Positions 3,566-24,498 of a stretch of 25,616 nucleotides of DNA are shown in pieces. Within the stretch, counting starts at the first letter, position 1, and the number at the start of each line of letters is the position of its first letter. This DNA is from a virus (taxonomy: Duplodnaviria > Heunggongvirae > Uroviricota > Caudoviricetes). Location: positions 1 to 25,616 of IMG/VR virus record IMGVR_UViG_3300029033_000243. One strand, 5' to 3'. The translations under genes and the position numbers were made by a program. A model generated the notes under the pieces. The model was not told the DNA's origin. It saw nothing but the letters and a program-made list of their open reading frames with translations, and did not search any database.

Positions 3566-5011
3566 GTGAACACGTATGAAACAATTAAAGTTACTTTTTC
3601 TTATGACCACAACCCAATTACTATTAATGACGATAATATAAAAACAGAAAACAGTATCGAAATGACTTGCAATGTTACTGTCAACAATAAAGAAAGCTGG
3701 GATAGGATTCAGATAAAGACCTATAGTAAAAAAACCATCAAGCTTTATGGAAAAAACAATTTAGACATTGAATTTTGCACTCATTATGTAAATGGTGATG
3801 TTCGCTCAGTGATAAAACTAATCGATTGTAGAATAGAAAACATCGTCGACCATCACTCAGGAAAAACTCAATACTATACATTTAACATCATTCCCAATGA
3901 AGTCATTATAAATAATAAAGCACATAATACGCCTGATACGGAAATAACATTCTACAACAGTGACCATCAACTACTTTCCCCTAACATTCAGTACAATTTA
4001 TCTTCGGATGGTAACATCACTCTTACAAAGTCAGAGCCTATTATTGTTAAACTTAACAATGACGAAGATATAAAATTAGATATCGAATCAAAACTAGAAC
4101 GCGATGAAAAATTTGAAATCAGCACAAAACAAATCCTAAAAATAAAGTCCAATAATTCTAATTTAACCATTGATGATGTAAGAAATAACTACATTGACAA
4201 AATTGACGCATTTAATGATATCTTATCATTTATCAATAGTAACAAAGTAGTTTGTCGTTACTGGAACCTAAAATCTAATGATGGTGTATATACAGTTTTT
4301 CGCTGTAGGATAAAAAATCCTATTAAGGATACCAAAAAAAAACACTTAATGATGCCATTACAAGCCAAAGAAAATATTGAAAATATGTTTCACACATATT
4401 TGTCATCCCATTACAGACAGAACATCCGATTAGCCATTAATGTCCTCAATGCATCAAACCAATATCTTGAGTCTCGATACCTTTCACTTTTCCAATCTTT
4501 TGAATCTATTATTTTAACTCATAAAGAAAAAAACAATACGACCTTCATTCTATGTGAAAGCGAGTTTAGATCATTAAGACAAACAATTGAAAGAATCATC
4601 ACCAAGGACGTTATCAAAGATTCAAAAACTAGAGGAAAAATAAAAAACAAACTAGGAGAACTGAATAGAATATCATTAAAAGATGCCACACAAGAATGTC
4701 TTAAAGAACATTTAATCCATACTCATGACTTATGGCCATTGTTTAATGAATCTGGTAAGCTAGGACTTTCTGAAATCAGAAATATAATTATACATGGTGT
4801 AATTATACCAAGTGACAACTTGATAAACATTGCAGTTGCTTGTGAACATTTAACAATATATCTAACCAGATTAATTCTATGTCTTCTTGGATGCGATCAC
4901 CGTGAAACAATATATTCTGAAGAGCATTTGAGGTTTAGTTCAAACGTAAATGATTTTGCCTTTTGGGAACATCATCGAAAATCTTTAACAGAGGCACTTA
5001 AAACTCATTAA
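3566..5011 (+). CDS. AT-rich cargo gene: 481-aa protein of unknown function with a C-terminal HEPN-like Rx4H motif (candidate abortive-infection/defence protein)
   Basis: GTG start 9 nt after AGGAGA; strongly AT-rich versus flanks; opposite strand to the surrounding morphogenesis genes; sits where P2 carries non-essential orf30 between S and V; motif SEIRNIIIHG (R405-x4-H410) about 77 aa from the C-terminus. Confidence 0.7.
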   Translation: MNTYETIKVTFSYDHNPITINDDNIKTENSIEMTCNVTVNNKESWDRIQIKTYSKKTIKLYGKNNLDIEFCTHYVNGDVRSVIKLIDCRIENIVDHHSGKTQYYTFNIIPNEVIINNKAHNTPDTEITFYNSDHQLLSPNIQYNLSSDGNITLTKSEPIIVKLNNDEDIKLDIESKLERDEKFEISTKQILKIKSNNSNLTIDDVRNNYIDKIDAFNDILSFINSNKVVCRYWNLKSNDGVYTVFRCRIKNPIKDTKKKHLMMPLQAKENIENMFHTYLSSHYRQNIRLAINVLNASNQYLESRYLSLFQSFESIILTHKEKNNTTFILCESEFRSLRQTIERIITKDVIKDSKTRGKIKNKLGELNRISLKDATQECLKEHLIHTHDLWPLFNESGKLGLSEIRNIIIHGVIIPSDNLINIAVACEHLTIYLTRLILCLLGCDHRETIYSEEHLRFSSNVNDFAFWEHHRKSLTEALKTH

Positions 5012-10535: not shown

Positions 10536-10553
10536 TGTACCGACAACCACACA
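10536..10553. promoter_or_regulatory. TGT-N12-ACA dyad in the divergent O/P intergenic region (putative Ogr-dependent late promoter element)
   Basis: Read directly: tgt-accgacaaccac-aca, about 85 nt upstream of the O start; palindromic, so orientation-independent. Confidence 0.4.
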
Positions 10554-10599
10554 AACCGCAGGCGGGGAAAGCCTTCATTCAAGGCTGTAGGTTTGTGCC

Positions 10600-12366
10600 A
10601 TGAACACCACACTGACACCCGCAGATCTCGATCCCCGTCGGCAGGCCATGCTGCTGTACTTTCAGGGATACCGCGTAGCCCGCATTGCTGAAATGCTGGG
10701 CGAGAAAGTTGCAACCGTTCACAGCTGGAAAAAACGCGACAAGTGGGGTGACTATGGGCCGCTGGATCAGATGCAGCTCACCACCGCCGCACGCTACTGC
10801 CAGCTCATTATGAAGGAGCACAAAGAAGGGAAAGATTTCAAAGAGATTGACCTGCTGGCGCGCCAGTCTGAGCGCCACGCGCGGATCGGCAAGTTTAACA
10901 ATGGCGGCAACGAAGCCGACTTAAATCCTAACGTCGCCAACCGCAACAAAGGCCCGCGCCGTCAGCCGGAAAAAAATGTCTTCACCGATGAACAGATTGA
11001 GAAGCTGGAAGAAATCTTCCATTCCTCCATGTTCAACTACCAGCGCCACTGGTGGGAAGCCGGAAAAACCAACCGCATCCGCAACCTGCTGAAGTCACGC
11101 CAGATCGGCGCGACCTTTTACTTTGCCCGTGAAGCCCTGATTGACGCCCTGCTTACCGGGCGTAACCAGATTTTCCTTTCCGCCAGTAAGGCACAGGCCC
11201 ACGTCTTTAAGCAGTACATCATCGACTTCGCCAAAGAAGTGGAGGTGGAGCTGAAAGGCGATCCGATGGTGCTTCCTAACGGGGCCACGCTTTACTTCCT
11301 CGGCACCAATGCCCGCACGGCCCAGAGTTATCACGGCAACCTGTATCTGGATGAATATTTCTGGATACCGAAATTTCAGGAGCTACGCAAAGTGGCTTCC
11401 GGTATGGCTATTCACAAGAAATGGCGGCAGACCTATTTTTCCACACCATCCAGTCTGACCCACAGTGCTTATCCGTTCTGGTCCGGTGCGCTGTTCAACC
11501 GTGGGCGCAACAAAGCTGACAAGGTGGACATCGACCTGTCCCACAGCAATCTGGCCCCCGGCCTGCTGTGCGCAGACGGGCAATACCGCCAGATAGTCAC
11601 CGTGGAAGATGCGGTGCGCGGCGGCTGTAACCTGTTCGACCTCGACCAGTTGCGCATGGAGTACAGCCCGGACGAATACCAGAACCTGCTGATGTGTGAG
11701 TTCGTGGACGATCTCGCGTCCGTGTTCCCGCTCAGCGAGCTGCAGGCGTGCATGGTGGACAGCTGGGAAGTATGGACCGACTTTCATGCACTGGCGCTGC
11801 GCCCGTTTGGCTGGCGCGAAGTGTGGATCGGTTATGACCCGGCAAAAGGTACGCAGAACGGCGACAGTGCCGGATGCGTGGTGGTGGCTCCGCCAGCCGT
11901 GCCGGGTGGTAAGTTCCGCATTCTTGAGCGTCACCAGTGGCGCGGGATGGACTTCCGCGCCCAGGCTGACGCCATCAAAAAACTCACCGAACAGTACAAC
12001 GTTACGTATATCGGTATCGACTCGACCGGCGTTGGTCACGGGGTTTATGAGAACGTGAAAGCGTTCTTTCCTGCCGTCCGGGAGTTTGTCTACAACCCCA
12101 ACGTTAAAAATGCCCTGGTACTCAAGGCCTACGACATTATCAGCCACCGCCGTCTGGAGTTTGACGCCGGACACACCGACATTGCGCAGTCATTCATGGC
12201 AATCCGTCGCGCAACCACCGCCAGCGGCAACCGCCCGACCTATGAAGCCAGCCGCAGCGAAGAAGCCAGCCACGCCGATCTGGCCTGGGCAACAATGCAC
12301 GCACTGTTTAACGAACCGCTGCAGGGCGAATCCGCCAATACCAGCAATATTGTGGAGATTTTTTGA
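10600..12366 (+). CDS. P: terminase large (ATPase) subunit gpP
   Basis: 588 aa; strong resemblance to P2 gpP along its length; stop overlaps the Q start (ATGA). Confidence 0.9.
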   Translation: MNTTLTPADLDPRRQAMLLYFQGYRVARIAEMLGEKVATVHSWKKRDKWGDYGPLDQMQLTTAARYCQLIMKEHKEGKDFKEIDLLARQSERHARIGKFNNGGNEADLNPNVANRNKGPRRQPEKNVFTDEQIEKLEEIFHSSMFNYQRHWWEAGKTNRIRNLLKSRQIGATFYFAREALIDALLTGRNQIFLSASKAQAHVFKQYIIDFAKEVEVELKGDPMVLPNGATLYFLGTNARTAQSYHGNLYLDEYFWIPKFQELRKVASGMAIHKKWRQTYFSTPSSLTHSAYPFWSGALFNRGRNKADKVDIDLSHSNLAPGLLCADGQYRQIVTVEDAVRGGCNLFDLDQLRMEYSPDEYQNLLMCEFVDDLASVFPLSELQACMVDSWEVWTDFHALALRPFGWREVWIGYDPAKGTQNGDSAGCVVVAPPAVPGGKFRILERHQWRGMDFRAQADAIKKLTEQYNVTYIGIDSTGVGHGVYENVKAFFPAVREFVYNPNVKNALVLKAYDIISHRRLEFDAGHTDIAQSFMAIRRATTASGNRPTYEASRSEEASHADLAWATMHALFNEPLQGESANTSNIVEIF

Positions 12367-13394
12367 TGGGAAAGAGTAAGAAGAACCGCGCTGCGGCGAC
12401 GAAACAGATCCAGCTTAAAAGCCAGACTACAGCCGAAGCATTCAGCTTCGGCGATCCCGTTCCTGTTCTGGACCGCCGAGAACTGCTGGACTATGTGGAA
12501 TGCGTACAGATGGACCGTTGGTATGAGCCGCCCGTCAGCTTTGACGGACTGGCGCGCACCTTCCGCGCTGCCGTGCATCACAGTTCCCCGATTGCAGTGA
12601 AATGCAACATTCTGACCAGTACATTTATCCCGCATCCACTCCTGAGCCAGCAAGCATTCAGCCGATTAGTGCAAGATTATCTGGTATTCGGTAACGCCTA
12701 TCTGGAAAAAAGGACGAACCGATTGGGAGGCATTCTATCGCTGGAGCCATCACTGGCAAAATACACCCGCCGGGGCGTGGATCTCGACACCTACTGGTTT
12801 GTGCAATATGGCATGACCACGCAACCCTACGAGTTCACCAAAGGCAGCATCTTTCACCTGATGGAGCCAGATTTAAACCAAGAGATTTACGGCCTGCCGG
12901 AATACCTGTCCGCCATACCTTCCGCCCTGCTGAATGAGTCCGCAACACTATTCCGCCGGAAGTACTACATCAACGGCAGCCACGCAGGTTTCATCATGTA
13001 CATGACTGACGCCGCGCAGAACCATGAGGACGTGAACAACATCCGCCAGGCCATGAAAAGCGCCAAAGGTCCAGGTAACTTCCGTAACCTGTTTATGTAC
13101 TCACCCAACGGCAAAAAGGATGGCATTCAGATCATCCCACTGTCAGAGGTGGCGGCAAAAGATGAGTTTTTGAACATCAAGAATGTGAGCCGGGATGACA
13201 TGATGGCAGCGCACCGCGTGCCGCCGCAGATGATGGGAATTATGCCTAGCAATGTTGGGGGGTTTGGGGATGTAGAGAAGGCGAGTAAGGTATTTGTAAG
13301 AAATGAATTAACTCCCCTGCAAGCTAAATTTGAGGAGGTTAATCAATTCACTGGATACGAAATAGTGAAATTTAAAAAATATTCTTTTGAGTAA
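12363..13394 (+). CDS. Q: portal (capsid vertex) protein gpQ
   Basis: 343 aa; P2 gpQ-like size and sequence; translationally coupled to P. Confidence 0.9.
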   Translation: MMGKSKKNRAAATKQIQLKSQTTAEAFSFGDPVPVLDRRELLDYVECVQMDRWYEPPVSFDGLARTFRAAVHHSSPIAVKCNILTSTFIPHPLLSQQAFSRLVQDYLVFGNAYLEKRTNRLGGILSLEPSLAKYTRRGVDLDTYWFVQYGMTTQPYEFTKGSIFHLMEPDLNQEIYGLPEYLSAIPSALLNESATLFRRKYYINGSHAGFIMYMTDAAQNHEDVNNIRQAMKSAKGPGNFRNLFMYSPNGKKDGIQIIPLSEVAAKDEFLNIKNVSRDDMMAAHRVPPQMMGIMPSNVGGFGDVEKASKVFVRNELTPLQAKFEEVNQFTGYEIVKFKKYSFE

Positions 13395-13402
13395 ATAAAA
13401 AC

Positions 13403-13433
13403 AAGCCATCCATATAAATATATTGGATGGCTT
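13403..13433 (-). terminator. rho-independent terminator of the ATPase-SIR2 operon (hairpin shared with the convergent Q gene)
   Basis: Perfect 10-bp stem aagccatcca / tggatggctt with an 11-nt loop; on the minus strand it is followed by TGTTTTTATTT, 6 nt after the SIR2-like ORF stop. Confidence 0.55.
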
Positions 13434-13438
13434 ATTAA

Positions 13439-14014
13439 TTAAGACTCAGCACACAACTCTAAAAAAGAACCTTTATAATAAAAAAGACCAGACTTATCAT
13501 TTAACTCTGTAAATAGCTTACAAGCTCTTTTATGACACTCCAATGCACTGTTTTCATTACGACTAACTATAATTGTTTCTTTCTCCTTATTGTCTGCATC
13601 CAGAAAACTCTTCAATAAGAATTGAATAATGTAATCTTCTTCAGGGAAAGAATACCCAATAAAAATCAGAACATCTGCTTGTCTTAGTTGACTAGATGAT
13701 TTAATAAATGCATTTTTGAAGTATTTATCACTATAATTTTGATCATTAGATGGTAATATTATATTCGGACATGACTTTATATCATTTAATGAGTCGTAAT
13801 CAATTTTAAAGCCATCACCTTCAGCAATAACCTCAAACCCACCATTTAATTTATAGAGTCCAACTCCACCTTTTTTAGGACAAGCGACTTCGTTATTAAT
13901 ATGAATGGGAAAACCACGTAATTGAGTCCTAGCAGGATTGGAGAATTTCAAAACCTTATCAATAACTATATCATAATTTGTAGTTATAATATCCAAAGAT
14001 TTGGAACATTCCAA
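13439..14014 (-). CDS. SIR2-like (NADase-type) effector, C-terminal portion; frame is open upstream to an in-frame TAG at 14132-14134
   Basis: ORF-track piece begins at TTG; carries ITTNYD (nt 13970-13984) and LIFIGYSFPEED (GYS nt 13649-13657) SIR2-type motifs; AT-rich; same frame as the 14132..14527 piece. Confidence 0.6.
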   Translation of the reverse strand: MECSKSLDIITTNYDIVIDKVLKFSNPARTQLRGFPIHINNEVACPKKGGVGLYKLNGGFEVIAEGDGFKIDYDSLNDIKSCPNIILPSNDQNYSDKYFKNAFIKSSSQLRQADVLIFIGYSFPEEDYIIQFLLKSFLDADNKEKETIIVSRNENSALECHKRACKLFTELNDKSGLFYYKGSFLELCAES

Positions 14015-14131
14015 TCCATTAAAAAACCTGATAATATCATCTTTATGTTTTCTTGCAGCACCCTTGCTATCAAGCTTAAATTCACTCGCAGGCAGTAATC
14101 TTACAAATTTATTCTTAATGTAATTCTTGAC

Positions 14132-14527
14132 CTACCGTTCAAAATAGTCCAGAGTCTGTTTATCCAAATGAGATGGTAAAAGACTAGGGTATCTGCGGTA
14201 AACATCAAGATTGTACTTAAAACTCTTAAATACGCCAGCCCTTTCCTTTTCACAAACAGTTTCTGGATGCAGATTCAGATTAAAAGATTCAAATAAAGAG
14301 AAAAATTTAAACTTATCAGAATATAATTCAGCTTCTTCTTTTGACAACGAGAAAACTTGATCACTCAGGGGATATTTTTCATCCCAAGCTTTAGAAAAAC
14401 CAGCACCTAAAAAAACACATATTTTCTTATCGTCTAGCTTCCGATGTAAATCATCGAAGGACTCTATTCCTAGAGAATTACCTTCTTGAGCCACACCATC
14501 ATAGTCAAAGTCTAATTTATCTAACAT
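14132..14527 (-). CDS. SIR2-like effector, N-terminal portion (Rossmann GAGxS motif), ending at an in-frame TAG
   Basis: 131 aa; KICVFLGAGFSKAW (nt 14393-14407) is the SIR2 dinucleotide-binding motif; ATG overlaps the ATPase stop (TAATG), indicating translational coupling. Confidence 0.6.
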   Translation of the reverse strand: MLDKLDFDYDGVAQEGNSLGIESFDDLHRKLDDKKICVFLGAGFSKAWDEKYPLSDQVFSLSKEEAELYSDKFKFFSLFESFNLNLHPETVCEKERAGVFKSFKYNLDVYRRYPSLLPSHLDKQTLDYFER

Positions 14528-15768
14528 TATTTTTCTTTCCCTACCAATCCCAAAAAGGAAGGAAGAACACCAAATTCCCCTCGAAAATACTTAGCCGAAA
14601 CCTTAGCATCTTTCCTAATTGAAAACTTTGATGCATTGATAATATTCGAGGCTTTTTCTTTATCTTTGATAATAATATTTAATTCATCTCTTCTGAAGCA
14701 TTCATCCAATAAAGGAATATTATGAGTAGATAATATAAATTGCATATCATTTTTCTCTAAATGATATGTTAAGATACTTTTAATTAAGGTGGTAGCCAGA
14801 GAATGATGAATAGATGCATCTACTTCATCAACATAAAGCGTAAACCCACAATCAGTTGTCCAAATAACTGCAGCCATGAATGTTAATATATTCATAGTCC
14901 CTTGTGAGAAAAACTCATCCCTCTCACCTGGACCTATGGTTGTAAAACCACCATCAAGATTTTTTATCTTGTAGACAAAGTGATATTTTTTATCACTACC
15001 TACAGGAAGAAAATCGACACCATCAATATGAAGGGGTGCCTTTAAAATAACATCACCATACAAACCTAACAGATTCTTAGCATTATCATTAATGGTTACC
15101 TTCCCATTATCATCTTTAGTCAGTAGTTCTTCAAACTTGGATTCAAAAAACTCCAACCCTTTACCAAAAAATATTTCAGGATTATATGGTAATTGAGATA
15201 CAGCCCAATCTCTAACATTAGTCATTTCTTTGGATTGCAAAGATTTCGCAAATGTTATTACTGCACCAGAATCTTTAATAATTGGTTTTATAAGCGTTTC
15301 ATGCTTTTTGTAAGTTGGTTTTTTAAACTCCAACTCATCTCCATTACGAATAAAAATACAACTTTCTTTTGCTCCTTTCTTCACTTCTCTTGAGTAAAGA
15401 TATTCACTAACAACCTTACCTTCAAAAACAGATATCCCATATCGAAGAAAAGTGTCTTTTTCTTTGTTTACAATAATAACTTCATAAGAGGTCGGACTTA
15501 GTCGATTTTTACTATCGAACATGTACGGTTTATGGAGTTCATTCAATGTGTCACGATGTATAGATCGAGCAAAATCATTTATTGCTCTTATTATTTGAGA
15601 TTTTCCTGCACCATTCCCACCAATAATTGCAGCAAATCGATTAATTCTTAATCCATTGTCTAACAACATAGTATGATCAAGGTGTTCATCACCAGCGGAT
15701 GACACAAAACTTAGAGTCTGCTGGTCTCTAAAGCTCTTATAATTCTCTATCGTGAAGGCAATCAGCAT
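14527..15768 (-). CDS. ABC-type / AAA_21-like ATPase (OLD/PtuA/AriA-like architecture), first gene of the two-gene cargo operon
   Basis: 413 aa; Walker A GGNGAGKS (nt 15598-15621, verified by translation); Walker B/D-loop LYVDEVDASIHH; late STHN motif; N-terminus MLIAFTIENYKSFRD typical of these ATPases; AT-rich. Confidence 0.8.
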   Translation of the reverse strand: MLIAFTIENYKSFRDQQTLSFVSSAGDEHLDHTMLLDNGLRINRFAAIIGGNGAGKSQIIRAINDFARSIHRDTLNELHKPYMFDSKNRLSPTSYEVIIVNKEKDTFLRYGISVFEGKVVSEYLYSREVKKGAKESCIFIRNGDELEFKKPTYKKHETLIKPIIKDSGAVITFAKSLQSKEMTNVRDWAVSQLPYNPEIFFGKGLEFFESKFEELLTKDDNGKVTINDNAKNLLGLYGDVILKAPLHIDGVDFLPVGSDKKYHFVYKIKNLDGGFTTIGPGERDEFFSQGTMNILTFMAAVIWTTDCGFTLYVDEVDASIHHSLATTLIKSILTYHLEKNDMQFILSTHNIPLLDECFRRDELNIIIKDKEKASNIINASKFSIRKDAKVSAKYFRGEFGVLPSFLGLVGKEK

Positions 15769-15912
15769 CTGAAACCCCTAATTTTGTGAAAAAAGTGCAA
15801 AATAGACATGATTAGTGAGTGTAATGCAGACTGAGCTAGGCTGTAAATGAAGATGTGAAGTTATCCTTTAATACTGTTCTTGCTTTCAACCAAATCTCAT
15901 ACTTAGCGCGCG

Positions 15913-15931
15913 CTCGTATCCCCGCCACGCC
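15913..15931 (-). other. putative cos site (19-nt cohesive-end sequence, minus-strand orientation)
   Basis: Reverse complement reads GGCGTGGCGGGGATACGAG; the first 13 nt match the cohesive end I recall for phage 186 (GGCGTGGCGGGGAAAGCAT; P2 has GGCGAGGCGGGGAAAGCAC). Lies downstream of Q, as expected. Confidence 0.5.
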
Positions 15932-15953: not shown

Positions 15954-16054
15954 TCATGCACATGCATGACATGAGCAAAAGCCCGCCAGTTCTGGCGAAT
16001 CTGAGCAAAGACGATCCTCAATCGATCATGCGATTTCATGCAGCATAGTCATGC
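15954..16054. repeat. cluster of TCATGC / CATGCATG short repeats next to cos (possible terminase recognition elements)
   Basis: Read directly: TCATGC at 15954-15959, 16026-16031, 16036-16041 and 16049-16054, plus CATGCATG at 15961-15968. Confidence 0.3.
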
Positions 16055-16310
16055 ACTGTCAAGGAAGTTAAAATCCGTATCTGAATGGCCACTTGAAAAA
16101 CGGATCATACGGGTTTACAAAGATGAATGTTCGCTGTGAACGGGAAGCGGAAGTTAACTTTCAGATAACATAATCCATATGCACGAGAACCTCTAAAATA
16201 GAATGGGACACCTAAGCGGGGTACTTACAACTATTCTTTCCATATTCACAGTTAACACTCTGTTTGGCGTATTTTTATTCAAATAGCAAACACCAATAAA
16301 AGGAGTTTCC

Positions 16311-16646
16311 ATGAACAATATTCCCCCTATACCACAGTTAGGAATTTATGTCTCAAAAATCGATCCCACCCTACGTATCACTGTAACCGATGTTGATATT
16401 GTTGATGGTGAGGATGATTCTCCTGATGATGAATTGTTTTATTTAGTCCACTGGATCGAGGGGGAAGATGAAAGTGATATGACAGCAATGGGATTTGAGC
16501 TAGACCCAGTAGAGTGGCAGGCTTTCGTTGAATCTGAGCAATTAGTGTTTGAGCGTGATCCGTACATGGATTCAATCCCCGAAAATTCAAACTTGGCAAA
16601 GATTCGGGATTTTCTCATGAAGACTAAACAGAATGATCATTCGTAA
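16311..16646 (+). CDS. small very acidic protein of unknown function (111 aa)
   Basis: ATG preceded by AAAGGAG; roughly a quarter of residues are Asp/Glu with few basic residues; lies between cos and the Tum/DinI-like module, where P2 carries tin/old. Confidence 0.55.
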   Translation: MNNIPPIPQLGIYVSKIDPTLRITVTDVDIVDGEDDSPDDELFYLVHWIEGEDESDMTAMGFELDPVEWQAFVESEQLVFERDPYMDSIPENSNLAKIRDFLMKTKQNDHS

Positions 16647-16800
16647 GTGTAAGCATCCATCAGGAAAATGGTTTTGTAAGTGAATCATCAACTTTTAGAG
16701 AGTCTCAGACACTCCCACTTCTGCTTCTGACACAAAGCGGACGATCACTTATCAAAATAACCGCCCACCTTACGCCTTATTTCACTCATTGCCCAAACTA

Positions 16801-16830
16801 GCCCCCATCAGAATGAATCCTCCTGGGGGC
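16801..16830. terminator. hairpin between convergent acidic ORF and DinI-like gene (weak terminator candidate)
   Basis: 7-bp GC-rich stem gccccca / tgggggc with a 16-nt loop; no strong T-tract on either side. Confidence 0.2.
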
Positions 16831-16838
16831 AACGTTTC

Positions 16839-17072
16839 TTAATGCAGCCAGCTGTCGTCCTCCCACACCTTCTGCATAATTTTCATCACTTGTTTTCTTT
16901 CTTCATCCAGTTGCAGTCCGGTTAGTTCCACACCGTTAGAGCTACCTTTGCGAATGCGAATTACCGTTTTGGGATACAGGGGGCGCAGATTGCGGTAAAG
17001 CTCGGATTCAAGGGCGTCCAGGGTAGACTGGCTAATCTTCTGCTCTTTATCGATCATTATTTCAATGCGCAT
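16839..17072 (-). CDS. DinI-family protein, Tum-like antirepressor domain
   Basis: From the internal Met (MRIEIMIDKEQ...LDALESEL...VWEDDSWLH), 77 aa aligns by eye with E. coli DinI (MRIEVTIAK...ETWESADDWFVSE). The ORF-track frame extends upstream to 17144, overlapping the preceding ORF. Confidence 0.7.
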   Translation of the reverse strand: MRIEIMIDKEQKISQSTLDALESELYRNLRPLYPKTVIRIRKGSSNGVELTGLQLDEERKQVMKIMQKVWEDDSWLH

Positions 17073-17423: not shown

Positions 17424-19844
17424 TTAATACAGGTTCCGCCACTTATCATCTTCCTTCAGACGTTGGTTCCGATAGAAGATACGCAGGCCTGCTCCTGACG
17501 GAATACTGCCGCCGCGAAGGAGCAAATCGACTTCTTTCTCGCTGCCATCAAATCCCCTGGACTTCAGTTCATAGACGAGCTGCTGTCGCTGATGGTCTGT
17601 AATTCGCTGTTTGTAGTCTTTACGCCGTTTCGGTTTCACCTGGCGTAACCTTGCAGCCAGTTCCCGGCGCTCTTTTTTGCTCATACTGTGCAGGTAATCG
17701 TGCAACTCCTTGTCATTCATACGGGTAATATCCGTTCTGGAGTCCCCATCAGCTGATTTGTCTTTCCCTTGTTGGTTCAAATTTTCAGCAAGGGGACAGT
17801 TATTGCCACGAGTCCGAGTCCAAGGGGCGCAAGCGCCCTGGTCGGCTGCCGCCTCCTGAACGTCAACGGCTTTACGAACCATTTTCCACTTCACTGCATG
17901 AGTGCAGATCTTGCCCTCTGCAATGGGTGACCAGATGCCATAAATACGAATACCGTGATCGCCATAGGCGGTCGGCTCTTCGTTGATTTCATAAGCGGTT
18001 CTGATGAGGTGATATTTACGGGGAACCAGTACGCCGCCCTGCTTCATGATATAGGTGGCAAAACAACCAGCATCAGCAGCAGCCAGAATGGCATCAAGGC
18101 GCGGGTTATCCAGTACCGGCGCACCTGCTTTTTTGTCATCCTGCTGCCTTGCCGCCTGACCAGCCAGCAATCGCAGTTCACGGTAAGCCTGACGCCCCGG
18201 AATGCCAAAGAAGCGGAATTGCTGAACACGATGCAGAGACGCCCAGGCATTAACGTATTCAGCGTTATCACGCAGAGTTTTACCCGTTTCCTTGCTGATC
18301 TCGCCAGCCAGACCACGCCCGTCAATATTCTTACTGATATATTTCGCGATGTAGCTTGTCGGCGTTCCTTTGCGCGGATTAATCAGCTCAGACTGAAAGC
18401 GCGGCCCCGTGTTATTGCCCAGCTCCTCGCGGTCTTCACGGATGGCAAAGTTACGCAGTAATGCAGTGATGGCGCGGCGGTCTTTTTTGCGCATAAAACA
18501 CAACAGGTGCCAGTGAACTGTACCGTCATGATGCGGCTCAGCCACCCGCACGCCATACCACCGCAATCCGGCTTTGTGCATTGCCTTACGAAATGCAGCA
18601 AACATGCCGACCAGATAATCACTGCTTTGTCTTACCGTCGCATTTGTCCAGGTCGGGTTGGGCCTGCCGTTATTTAGCGTGGAATGGAAACGTGACGGAC
18701 AGGTGATGGTGTAGAAAACGGCGCAGTCACCGCGCATTTCCGCGATAAGCTCCAGACCTTTAACACAGGCCATCATCTCATTGCGGCGATGCGCAGGGTT
18801 GCTGCTGCTGGCGTTTACCACATCCTCCATGTCCAGCGTGTCGCCGTCTTCGTTCACCAGTTCATGAGAACGGAAAAACTCCAGCGACTTACGGCGCTGC
18901 TCACGTTTATGCATCACGGCTTCATAGCTGACATAGGGAGATGCTTTTTTGCTGACAAGGCAGACAGCACGCAACTGCTCTTCCCGCCATTCGCAACGCA
19001 TCTTCCATAATTTCCGATACCACCAGTCGGCGCACAACATACGCGCCAGCGAACCCGGAATGAGTTCATAGGGCACGGGTTTACGGCGGTTTCTTTTCCG
19101 GCGGAGTTGCTCAAACGCAGGTGGGATGACATCCAGTCGCAGGGTTTCTGCTGCCACCCTTTCCCATGTCTTGCGGATTTCTTCTGGCTTAACGTCATCG
19201 GTGGCATACAAATCGCCACAAGCTGCATCAAGGCACATGCTCATATGCGCAGCTACCAGGGTGGACAGGCGTTTCACCTGATCCTGACTCATTTCAGGCA
19301 GGATCAGCAGGCCGTCCAGCCCTTCATGGCTCGCCATAAAGCGAAAAGAAGTGGATAGCTGACTGTCGCGTACATGCTCCAGCCGTTCCAGACATGGCTT
19401 AATCGTCTCACGCAAATAGCGGGAATAAGCCTTTGGCCTGCCCAGGCTGCTGAAGTATTCAATACGTTGCATCAGCGGCTTGCTGATATGGGAAGGCTGG
19501 GCGTTGACGTCAGCCAGAATGACCATGTCTGGATTAAAACGCTGCTGCTCATGCGCCAGCTTTGCCCGGCTAATGAGCTTATCCTGCTCCATTTCGCGCT
19601 GGACAGGATCACGGGATTCATTAAAGAAATAACGCTCCCAGACCTGCTCACTCAGTGCCTCGCGGCGCAGTTGTTCCTGCTCGTTATCGGCAGCATACAG
19701 AGTGATCAGGTTTGAAAGTGCAGACTCCGGCGCAACTTCCGCCGGGTCCAGATAAGGGTTAATGGCCTTTTTCGGGCCGTTCCATGAAAATGATGCGGCG
19801 GCCTCGTTAAAGCCGCTAGAGTTGCTCATATCGTCATGACTCAT
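17424..19844 (-). CDS. A: replication initiation protein gpA (rolling-circle endonuclease)
   Basis: 806 aa; HUH-type motif [11 protein letters not shown]2/186 gpA-like; start overlaps the Dam stop (ATGA). Confidence 0.85.
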
Positions 19845-22587: not shown

Positions 22588-23514
22588 ATGTCAACACACG
22601 AAATCACATTTCGCCATGTGGACGAAAAAAAGAAATCCTTAATCATGCAGAATCGCGGAGGGCAAGCAGTCATCGAGCGGATATTAGAAGCGTATGGTTT
22701 TTCTTCACGCCAAGCATTCTGCAATCATCTGGGGATATCACAGAGCACAATGGCGAACAGGTATGCGCGTGACACTTTCCCAGCTGACTGGGTTGTTATC
22801 TGTAGTATGGAAACTGGTGTATCGATTGAGTGGTTAGCATTTGGTACTGATACCGAAATGGAAAGCTTTGCAGATAAAAGTCACGACAATTGTAACAGTG
22901 AATCTCGGCACCTCAACAGAGAACCTAAAAACCCAAATGAGAACACTGTTACTATAAATCAAAACGGAAAAGCAGCAATAGAGCGAATCGTTGCAGCCTA
23001 TGGATTTAAGACAAGACAAGCTTTAGCTGATCATTTGGGTATTTCAAAAAGCACACTAGCTAATCGTTATATGAGGGATACATTTCCAGCCGATTGGATT
23101 ATCCAATGCGCACTTGAAACTGGTATATCACTAGATTGGCTCGTTACTGGAAAAGGCTCAAAATCGAACGATGTAAATACTGATGTAGCAAAGTTATTAG
23201 CATATAAGCTAATAAATGGTAAGTTAATAGATGCGGACTATATCCACTTTGATAAATCTTTAATACCACACAACCTTATAAATCCGCAGGTTGTGATCGA
23301 TAGCGAAAATGTTTTCGTAGTAGACTATGGATATAAAGAAATATCTGATGGTGAATGGTTAGTAGAAATTGAAGGCAAAATAAATATTAGAACATTGGTC
23401 CGCATACCCGTAGGAAAAGTTAAAGTAATATCTACTCATGCTGATTTCATATGTGACATTGAGAATATAAAACTTTTAGCAAAATGCCACTGTGCTTTCA
23501 TTAAAAACATTTAA
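22588..23514 (+). CDS. CI-like immunity repressor with tandemly duplicated N-terminal DNA-binding domain
   Basis: 308 aa; two ~63-aa segments (res ~24-86 and ~126-188) share IERI..AYGF..RQA...HLGIS.ST.ANRY.RDTFPADW...ETG.S..WL..G, resembling the 186 CI-type N-terminal domain; followed by an AT-rich C-terminal domain. Confidence 0.7.
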   Translation: MSTHEITFRHVDEKKKSLIMQNRGGQAVIERILEAYGFSSRQAFCNHLGISQSTMANRYARDTFPADWVVICSMETGVSIEWLAFGTDTEMESFADKSHDNCNSESRHLNREPKNPNENTVTINQNGKAAIERIVAAYGFKTRQALADHLGISKSTLANRYMRDTFPADWIIQCALETGISLDWLVTGKGSKSNDVNTDVAKLLAYKLINGKLIDADYIHFDKSLIPHNLINPQVVIDSENVFVVDYGYKEISDGEWLVEIEGKINIRTLVRIPVGKVKVISTHADFICDIENIKLLAKCHCAFIKNI

Positions 23515-23526
23515 TTTGGACTTATC

Positions 23527-24498
23527 ATGGACTCTAAAGAACACAAAAAAGAAACAATACAAAACAGCATCACAAAATCAGAGTTTAAAAAATACGTTGA
23601 TTTTATACATGATGATTCTATTCCACTTCCTGAACATGAACGCACATATCTAAAGAACTTGTTGAAAAATGGTGAAATTGAAGAATTCAAGGATCAATAT
23701 AGACGCCATCTCCAAAACTTAGATAGAGTCGGCTTTAGCGACGAAGATATTGAATTACAACTTAACGTGTTAAAAAAAGATAATAATGAATTCAGAAACT
23801 TATTACGTTTTTATACAGCTCGCTTATCTGATTTGCAAGAAAGCAACACCTCATTATCATTAAAAAACAAAGAGTTAGAAAATTTAAACATAGAAAAAGA
23901 ATCTTTACTTGAGCAAACTTTTTCTAGGATAAAAGAGTTAGAGGCTTCAAATAACGAATTAACCAGTCGAGCACATCAAGAGAGAATTGATCAAAAAATT
24001 CCCGAATATGTCAATAGTGTAAAAGATGATTTAGGTGATGATGATGATCACTTTATTTCACTCGCCAAAACATGGGCTATTGCTGGTGCAATAGCCGGTC
24101 TTTCCGCTGTCATTTTTTCGTTCATATCATTATATTTTGTTACTGATTTCATAAATGCTAAAGGATTTGAACTATTTTATCTATTCACCAGAGGCCTGAT
24201 TGGAATTTCCATTTTATCATGGCTTTCTTATATCTGTCTGAGTATCTCCAAAAAGTATACTCATGAGTCCATTCGCAGAAAAGACAGAAGGCATGCCTTA
24301 ATGTTTGGTCAAGTCTTCCTACAAATTTACGGTTCGACTGCGACCAAAGAAGATGCTATTCAGGTATTTAAGGACTGGAACATGTCTGGAGATTCTGCTT
24401 TTTCTGATCAAATGGATTATCCGCCAAGTTTCCAAACGCTATGGTCTACCGCGAAAGAAAAAATCAAACCTTCTCATTCAGAAAAATCCTCCGATTAA
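23527..24498 (+). CDS. AT-rich cargo gene: 323-aa coiled-coil protein with two C-terminal transmembrane helices (candidate superinfection-exclusion/abortive-infection protein)
   Basis: Between repressor and integrase, same strand; heptad-like region (LSDLQESNTSLSLKNKELENLNIEKESLLEQ...); hydrophobic helices WAIAGAIAGLSAVIFSFISLYFV and LIGISILSWLSYICLSI; AT-rich. Confidence 0.65.
   Translation: MDSKEHKKETIQNSITKSEFKKYVDFIHDDSIPLPEHERTYLKNLLKNGEIEEFKDQYRRHLQNLDRVGFSDEDIELQLNVLKKDNNEFRNLLRFYTARLSDLQESNTSLSLKNKELENLNIEKESLLEQTFSRIKELEASNNELTSRAHQERIDQKIPEYVNSVKDDLGDDDDHFISLAKTWAIAGAIAGLSAVIFSFISLYFVTDFINAKGFELFYLFTRGLIGISILSWLSYICLSISKKYTHESIRRKDRRHALMFGQVFLQIYGSTATKEDAIQVFKDWNMSGDSAFSDQMDYPPSFQTLWSTAKEKIKPSHSEKSSD

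Follow-up and report, generated by a model that had tools for sequence, protein, structure and literature searches.

What is the function of a small and extremely acidic protein whose gene lies right beside the cohesive-end site of a temperate phage? This question is raised by an open reading frame (ORF) in the IMG/VR virus record IMGVR_UViG_3300029033_000243, a stretch of 25,616 nucleotides (nt) that was analysed over its whole length (referred to as the window) and that represents a P2/186/Fels-2-like prophage. In the original prediction this 111-amino acid (aa) protein had been proposed to be a DNA mimic with an anti-restriction or other anti-defence function, comparable to Ocr and ArdA. 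The reading that is tentatively favoured here, and which we regard as possible rather than probable, is that of a stand-alone moron cassette in the cos slot of P2/Fels-2-like prophages, whose product would be made in the lysogen and would serve as an acidic decoy for a basic nucleic-acid-binding protein. The gene and its ribosome binding site are located as follows:

16311 to 16646, plus strand: coding sequence (CDS) of the acidic 111-aa protein, a member of the DUF8087 family and identical to WP_001059831, with the ATG at 16311 and the stop codon ending at 16646
16300 to 16305, plus strand: Shine-Dalgarno motif AAGGAG, read from the sequence, 5 nt 5′ of the ATG

Location, length and the presence of an own Shine-Dalgarno motif were found to be as originally described, and the ORF contains both peptides quoted at that time, VDIVDGEDDSPDDELFY and IEGEDESDMT. 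The statement that about a quarter of the residues are Asp or Glu with few basic ones agrees with the actual count of 15 Asp and 11 Glu (26 of 111 residues, 23.4%) and 4 Lys and 3 Arg (7 residues). The protein has a net charge of −19 and a computed isoelectric point (pI) of 4.05, with the negative charge being located mainly within residues 26–70. It ranks first in charge among the 36 non-overlapping ORFs of the window (net −0.17 per residue, compared with −0.05 for the runner-up), and the 12 most acidic of 263 background ORFs from related loci are all homologues of this very protein. The GC content of the ORF is 40%, that of the window 48.5%. In five homologous cassettes from other genera the GG at 16303–16304 and the A-rich flanks of the Shine-Dalgarno region are invariant. 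As there are 61 homologue clusters at 90% identity, and as the ratio of nonsynonymous to synonymous divergence (dN/dS) against homologues in other genomic contexts was 0.12–0.22 in the nine comparisons with estimable dS, the pattern of conservation indicates that 16311–16646 is a genuine gene under purifying selection.

The encoded protein is 100% identical to WP_001059831 (UniRef name ‘Ybl33’), which is encoded in BL21(DE3), REL606, C41/C43 and other derivatives of E. coli B and is present on at least 1000 assembled contigs. RefSeq labels this accession as ‘hypothetical protein’ or, more recently, as ‘DUF8087 domain-containing protein’ (H92, H93, H98, H99), and the latter label is likewise used for the island-borne homologue WP_022645574. 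Precomputed matches to the Pfam family PF26332 (DUF8087; model PF26332.1) are present on every homologue, including the 98%-identical cluster representative P0001. DUF8087 is a small family, with a hidden Markov model (HMM) search over 1.84 billion representatives yielding only 35 at E ≤ 1e-3. The gene is carried by about 132 of 5426 complete E. coli genomes, which corresponds to about 10% of the approximately 1304 genomes that bear the cos sequence. A tblastn search against 50,697 phage records gave no match, and the same search against 72,556 plasmids gave a single one, to a non-mobilizable 45-kb record. A literature search for PF26332, DUF8087, WP_001059831 and ybl33 found no paper. The accession is listed 50 times in Table S5A of Rousset et al. 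(2022) as a ‘hypothetical’ part of P2 hotspot loci, with no sign in that study of it being singled out (PMC9122126). DUF8087 is already catalogued and uncharacterised, cargo of the P2 hotspot is a known kind of locus, and neither would surprise a specialist.

Members of DUF8087 share the signature residues P8, G11, Y13, V25, V46, D56, E63, W69 and L78. The enterobacterial subfamily comprises proteins of 103–111 aa with an extra C-terminal helical extension, and distant members range from 68 to 132 aa with only the first ~80 residues in common. Strong acidity persists in relatives down to about 30% identity, and all 57 of the 57 members examined have a pI of 4.05–4.53 and a net charge of −8 to −22. 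Such a strongly negative charge that is conserved throughout a family is also expected of DNA mimics, which are a functional class and not a homologous family. The loop after strand 2 (β2–β3) varies in length from 0 to about 10 residues across the family and is acidic throughout. As all family members are acidic and this loop remains acidic despite its varying length, the comparison indicates that the acidity of DUF8087 is a selected property and not a matter of chance. The compositional argument of the original prediction is sound and gains strength from the acidity being kept across the whole family.

In the predicted structure, acidic loops are present and the body of the protein is modelled as a compact barrel, not as an elongated rod of the Ocr/ArdA type. 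An AlphaFold2 run with 28 homologues reached a mean predicted local distance difference test (pLDDT) score of 78, and a run with a 64-sequence alignment reached a pLDDT of 84 and a predicted template modelling (pTM) score of 0.70, all five models being in the range of 80.6–84. Both models share the same topology with strands at residues 11–15, 22–31, 43–50 and 61–64, a helix at 66–76 and a further strand at 78–82; a short helix (84–87) and a C-terminal helix (94–109) follow, and the acidic loop 32–42 is modelled at low confidence. DUF8087 is predicted to be a compact five-stranded SH3/Tudor-like barrel with helices and floppy acidic loops. Scans of the acidic protein against Pfam (E ≤ 1, in a copy without the PF26332 model), NCBIfam and PADLOC yielded no match, and hence no enzyme, helix-turn-helix (HTH) or other domain, and the sole match among the PHROGs was phrog_17127 (‘unknown function’). 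Profile searches against the PDB with a narrow and a broad alignment (E ≤ 10) gave nothing beyond a chance match to gasdermin (E = 1.6), and the fold comparison revealed no relation to Ocr, ArdA, Arn, Ugi, CarS or any other solved DNA mimic or viral structure. DUF1653, FeoA and the RNA polymerase-interacting domain of CarD/CdnL, which are SH3/Tudor-like small barrels as well, resemble DUF8087 at the fold level only (4–13% identity), and none of them has its acidic loops or its mobile-element context.

The gene does not travel with its CDS alone, as a longer segment is shared with unrelated genomic contexts:

16133 to 16682, plus strand: mobile single-gene cassette (leader, CDS and 36 nt), 85–88% identical at the nucleotide level to copies in non-P2 contexts
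16145 to 16310, plus strand: conserved non-coding leader or promoter region, which aligns across E. coli, Serratia, Symbiopectobacterium, Lonsdalea and Proteus

The bounds of this cassette are those obtained by blastn of the window against the loci L013–L016. With a length of about 550 bp it recurs in Serratia, Symbiopectobacterium, Lonsdalea and Proteus, and it consists of about 178 nt 5′ of the ATG (166 nt of which are conserved), the CDS and 36 nt 3′ of it. These non-P2 contexts are cargo of integrative and conjugative elements (ICEs) or genomic islands, with DUF2857, VirB4-like ICE genes and an Antirestrict/DUF932/YeeP-type island as neighbours, along with PD-T7-1, a DUF4365-TPR protein, a Mrr-like protein and Imm42. 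An E. coli island copy adjoins the gene for a 1589-aa helicase. The contexts in which DUF8087 was found comprise P2-like prophages, ICEs and islands, an inovirus-like region and small int-gpA elements, and it is usually located beside defence genes. The flanks of the cassette contain no direct or inverted repeats that would explain its mobility. The 166-nt leader has diverged about half as fast (0.17–0.20) as the synonymous sites of the CDS (0.27–0.41). It matches no Rfam family, and with folding z-scores of −0.37 (RNA) and +0.63 (DNA) the idea of the leader being a structured RNA or a Frpo-like single-strand promoter was rejected. A LexA box was not seen, an ACAG-N8-CTGT element having the wrong polarity.

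About 200 bp 3′ of the cassette a 127-aa gene is present in island and ICE contexts (10538–10921 in both L015 and L016, 9659–10042 in L017). It belongs to phrog_26730 (unknown function) in L015, is near-identical in L016 and was matched by length and spacing only in L017. Its product appears to be hydrophobic, and the gene is missing from the P2 slot.

In the window the cassette occupies a variable slot between cos and the DinI-like gene, surrounded by these features:

10600 to 12366, plus strand: terminase P (window annotation)
12363 to 13394, plus strand: portal Q (window annotation)
13439 to 14527, minus strand: SIR2-like gene, defence cargo
14527 to 15768, minus strand: AbiLi-like ABC ATPase, defence cargo (PADLOC, E = 9.6e-54)
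15913 to 15931, minus strand: cos 19-mer of the P2/186/Fels-2 type, which reads GGCGTGGCGGGGATACGAG and is preceded by AAGCGGGC as in P2 cosR
16058 to 16828: whole insert in the cos-to-DinI slot, as compared with P2-like phages with an empty slot
16801 to 16830: GC-rich hairpin (inverted repeat I8, GCCCCCATCAGAAT / ATCCTCCTGGGGGC) between the convergent DUF8087 and DinI-like genes
from 16839: DinI/TumB-like gene, convergent with the acidic ORF and followed by a 62-aa ORF
17424 to 19844: replication gene A, beyond the DinI-like gene and the 62-aa ORF, a region in which a Dam methylase is also encoded

The minus strand of the window reads GGCGTGGCGGGGATACGAG where P2 cosR reads GGCGAGGCGGGGAAAGCAC, and 160 bp around this 19-mer are conserved in P2-like phages. 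From the position of the cos 19-mer it follows that the acidic ORF starts 380 nt from the cohesive end, which justifies its original description as lying beside cos. In the virion the gene would sit 380 nt from the right end, reading inward. Homology to the backbone of phage vB_EcoM-813R9 and Fels-2 ends at about 16054–16057 and restarts at 16829–16841. No cargo is present in the slot of vB_EcoM-813R9 or of E. coli 2012C-4502, whereas Fels-2 has a 243-aa gene there that is unrelated to DUF8087, and FDAARGOS_433 has at least three other genes. With its position between cos and the gene A operon, the variability of the slot and a transcription away from cos, the acidic gene has the properties of P2 hotspot cargo. 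The order Q-cargo-cos-DUF8087-DinI-gpA is kept in 26 of 34 IMG/VR loci, with a distance between Q and cos of 0.2–2.5 kb. The hairpin at 16801–16830 is a possible bidirectional terminator, although it was not called in a terminator scan. As the P2-like IMG/VR loci L046–L048 (6334–7726) have an extra insert of about 1.2–1.4 kb, which separates DUF8087 from a divergent DinI-like gene (58% identity), the slot to the right of cos can hold DUF8087 together with more cargo.

The cargo on the other side of cos is not constant. The window contains the pair of AbiLi-like ATPase and SIR2 there, and the identical acidic protein is found elsewhere across cos from a retron of the Eco1/St85 type (BL21), from retron Ec67, from SIR2 and ParA, and from AAA_15/21 ATPases, among other cargoes. 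As this cargo differs between loci, DUF8087 is independent of it, and a dependence on one particular adjacent defence system was rejected.

The position of the gene also provides clues to its expression. In P2, transcription of the old-tin lysogenic-conversion mRNA begins about 150 nt from cosR and proceeds in the direction of gene A, and the acidic ORF has the same slot and orientation. Both loci lie between cosR and the point at which the gene A operon ends, both are transcribed away from cos and both are variable cargo (PMC9122126). The proteins themselves are different, with P2 Old being an ABC-ATPase/TOPRIM nuclease and Tin a 253-aa protein, neither of which is related to DUF8087. In another P2-like lineage, whose gpA proteins are 35–58% identical, DUF8087 is located within the lysogeny operon:

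L053, 4914 to 7327: lysogeny operon with DUF8087
L054, 4857 to 7981: lysogeny operon with DUF8087
L055, 4704 to 7313: lysogeny operon with DUF8087

The gene order in these three loci is Cox-like/Arc-like (minus strand), HTH repressor, phrog_5825, DUF8087 and integrase (all plus strand). DUF8087 starts 10–30 nt after phrog_5825 (10–24 nt in L053 and L055) and overlaps the start of int by 4–14 nt in L053 and L055, whereas 617 bp lie between the two genes in L054. The lysogenic promoter of P2 and 186 drives the transcription of C/cI and int. As DUF8087 is placed in the repressor-int operon of this lineage, it would be made together with the immunity repressor. By analogy with both arrangements it is most likely that DUF8087 is expressed from the integrated element, that is in the lysogen. 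The phrog_5825 protein (211–247 aa, unknown function) may be a functional partner of DUF8087.

More distant members are found outside P2-like prophages. A betaproteobacterial subfamily of 92–101 aa has a basic N-terminal arm (MGQAKLRGSKEERIAQ...) and is encoded in small integrative elements, in which DUF8087 on the plus strand follows int and is divergent from HTH_17 and a gpA-like Rep gene on the minus strand, being part of the backbone:

L003, 5470 to 10439: small int-gpA element
L007, 448 to 10573: small int-gpA element
L019 and L021: small int-gpA elements

The defence cargo of these elements includes a TIR-STAND protein, a BglII restriction-modification (R-M) system and a Gabija-like pair of OLD and UvrD, and the elements resemble a family of satellites, or of integrative and mobilizable elements, that carry defence genes. 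A member from Pantoea is an orphan chromosomal gene, and another one adjoins an inovirus-like Zot gene.

In the decoy reading that is tentatively favoured here, DUF8087 would be a small soluble protein with a compact SH3/Tudor-like barrel, two flexible acidic loops and a C-terminal helix, as modelled, and its expression would most likely come from the integrated element, as with P2 old/tin or with genes of the repressor operon. As catalytic, membrane and DNA-binding features are absent and the charge is nevertheless under selection, stoichiometric binding to a basic partner appears to be the most likely mode of action. DUF8087 would act as a negatively charged decoy on the nucleic-acid-binding surface of a basic target protein, a mechanism that is suggested by its composition and size and by the lack of motifs for catalysis, membrane association or DNA binding. 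Such a decoy could shield the element from a DNA-targeting defence of the host or disable a protein of a competing phage. The benefit could go to the element by counter-defence, to the lysogen by excluding competitors, or to the regulation of the element itself. Several observations weigh against this reading. No sigma-70 consensus was found within the leader (16145–16310), so that the argument for expression in the prophage is one of positional analogy only. In the betaproteobacterial int-gpA elements DUF8087, with its basic N-terminal arm, appears to belong to the backbone, which agrees better with a regulatory role than with a cargo decoy. High acidity is also a property of immunity proteins, chaperones and antitoxins.

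How does the decoy reading compare with its rivals? The version of the decoy or mimic idea that is least favoured, and that appears rather improbable, is the one proposed originally, in which an Ocr/ArdA-like anti-restriction DNA mimic would be made early on entry and would block type I R-M or other DNA-binding defences. Ocr, ArdA and DUF8087 are alike in being small, very acidic (pI ~4) and located on mobile elements, and a net charge of −19 over 111 aa is within the range of known DNA mimics. The location of the gene at the very right-hand end of the chromosome in the virion, its carriage by mobile elements that cross strain barriers and its presence in a zone of phage-host conflict (the P2 cos-proximal hotspot and ICE or island cargo near defence genes) would fit as well. 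The competitive binding to DNA-binding proteins by which Ocr and ArdA act is also the mode of action proposed for DUF8087. Ocr, which a lytic phage encodes among its early genes, is an all-helical elongated dimer, and ArdA is a three-domain curved rod encoded in the leading region of plasmids or ICEs. In contrast, DUF8087 has no sequence or HMM similarity to Ocr and no Pfam or PDB match linking it to ArdA, and it is modelled as a compact beta-barrel with helices instead of an all-helical elongated fold. Its slots are of the type expressed in lysogens, unlike those of an early entry-phase gene, and it is absent from the records of isolated phages and from nearly all plasmids (1 of 72,556 records), whereas ArdA/KlcA-type genes are typically found in phages and plasmids. 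The family was not found in the supplementary files of the EVADES preprint, which catalogues 268 anti-defence proteins, and a preprint on a screen of phage accessory genes does not mention P2-like phages. When the locus was examined for the features of an anti-CRISPR (Acr) locus, no aca-type HTH gene was adjacent, the 190 bp downstream being non-coding and followed by the convergent DinI-like gene. As Ugi, CarS and some Acrs are examples of acidic mimics that are compact, the idea of a DNA mimic as such is still standing. A published survey that used the anti-defence option of DefenseFinder reported anti-defence genes in only 28 of 1511 dereplicated P2-like prophages (PMC13586616), compared with the presence of the DUF8087 gene in about 10% of cos-bearing E. 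coli genomes. The conserved acidity and the conflict-zone location speak for the original anti-restriction proposal, the compact model and the missing tie to known anti-restriction proteins do not, and overall the evidence neither supports nor refutes it. Somewhat less improbable, but still unlikely, is a regulator of the element's own life cycle, either a CarS-like SH3 antirepressor or a modulator of gpA replication or of the lysis-lysogeny module, which would sequester the DNA-recognition surface of a repressor. Its precedent is Myxococcus CarS, an acidic antirepressor of 111 residues with SH3 topology, which shows that a small barrel is able to mimic operator DNA (PMC2926617). DUF8087 resembles it in its length of 111 residues, its acidity and its (predicted) SH3-like beta-barrel. 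A regulatory role would also agree with the betaproteobacterial DUF8087 being a conserved backbone gene next to int and divergent from the HTH_17-gpA operon, with the location in the repressor-int operon of L053–L055 and with the gene of the window adjoining a DinI/Tum-like gene of the 186/Fels-2 group.

A similarly low probability is given to a Tin-like single-gene factor of prophage exclusion or defence, which would poison a DNA- or single-stranded DNA-binding protein of a competing phage. Old and tin, with which the acidic gene shares slot and orientation, are both annotated as lysogenic-conversion exclusion genes, other occupants of the slot look like defence cargo, and island copies lie beside PD-T7-1, DUF4365-TPR and Mrr-like genes. 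The listing of the gene within P2 hotspot loci by Rousset et al. points in the same direction (PMC9122126). On the other hand, PADLOC gave no match, and a literature search found no report of a DUF8087 gene being active on its own. Most of the known exclusion proteins encoded by a single gene are enzymes or are located in the membrane. This explanation also overlaps with the favoured decoy reading, from which it differs solely in the target. Far less probable is a role as an orphan antitoxin or immunity protein, whose target would be a nuclease toxin that comes either from an adjacent gene or from a competitor. Immunity proteins against nucleases are typically small and acidic, and in L014 the next gene encodes an Imm42 immunity protein. 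However, the neighbours differ completely among about 20 distinct contexts, and as no conserved toxin or other partner gene was found across the contexts examined, this role was rejected. Equally hard to credit is a retron-linked accessory factor which would, for example, keep the prophage's own retron from firing on the prophage. Among complete E. coli genomes DUF8087 is located just across cos in 46 of 48 retron-Eco1 loci and in 12 of 14 retron-Ec67 loci, compared with a baseline of about 132 of approximately 1304 cos-bearing genomes. Yet the genes are less than 1 kb apart and many of these genomes are clonal laboratory B strains, so that linkage and sampling probably explain much of the association. 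Moreover, retron Eco1 and retron Ec67 each also occur without the gene, and the gene occurs with non-retron cargo as well as in retron-free islands.

A wider version of the decoy reading would see in DUF8087 an unrecognised structural class of nucleic-acid mimic, namely an SH3-like barrel with many flexible acidic loops, which is expressed from integrated elements (P2-like prophages, ICEs, small gpA elements) and broadly decoys immune or phage proteins that bind DNA. This would include a functional interplay with the retrons Eco1 and Ec67, which it nearly always accompanies in P2-like prophages of E. coli and one of which is the native retron of BL21(DE3). To this version we attach only a small probability. 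E. coli B, BL21(DE3) and REL606, the strains most widely used for protein expression and experimental evolution, encode the identical protein directly beside the native retron Eco1, and experiments on this retron and on phage sensitivity in B strains might be influenced by DUF8087 as a hidden variable. It is located in the best-studied phage defence hotspot (P2 gpA-cos-gpQ), where it has been catalogued only as a ‘hypothetical’ passenger. If the decoy or mimic reading is correct, a new fold would join the short list of DNA-mimic proteins, and DUF8087 could function either in counter-defence or as a minimal factor of exclusion. If it has no measurable effect, it would be just another conserved domain of unknown function in a cargo slot.

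Some further features of the window concern its cargo. The AbiLi-like ATPase and SIR2 cargo (13395–15890) gave no megablast match in the 5426 complete E. coli genomes, unlike the cos-DUF8087-DinI segment, which is 99.9% identical to E. coli. The SIR2-like gene at 13439–14527 (minus strand) is one frame of 362 codons with a single in-frame TAG at codon 132, due to which the ORF list splits it into parts of 131 and 191 aa; it could be a pseudogene with a nonsense mutation, the stop codon could be an error of sequencing, or it could be read through. The interval between CI and int (22588–24498, plus strand) contains an ORF of 323 aa with a weak match to DUF2207_C (membrane protein), and as a close relative has merely a 63-aa ORF there, this interval seems to be another cargo slot. 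The CI ORF of the window as listed comprises 308 aa with two Phage_CI_repr stretches, compared with 189 aa for the CI of the relative. Finally, an ORF of 481 aa without a Pfam match, located among tail and lysis genes (3566–5011, plus strand), may be accessory cargo as well.

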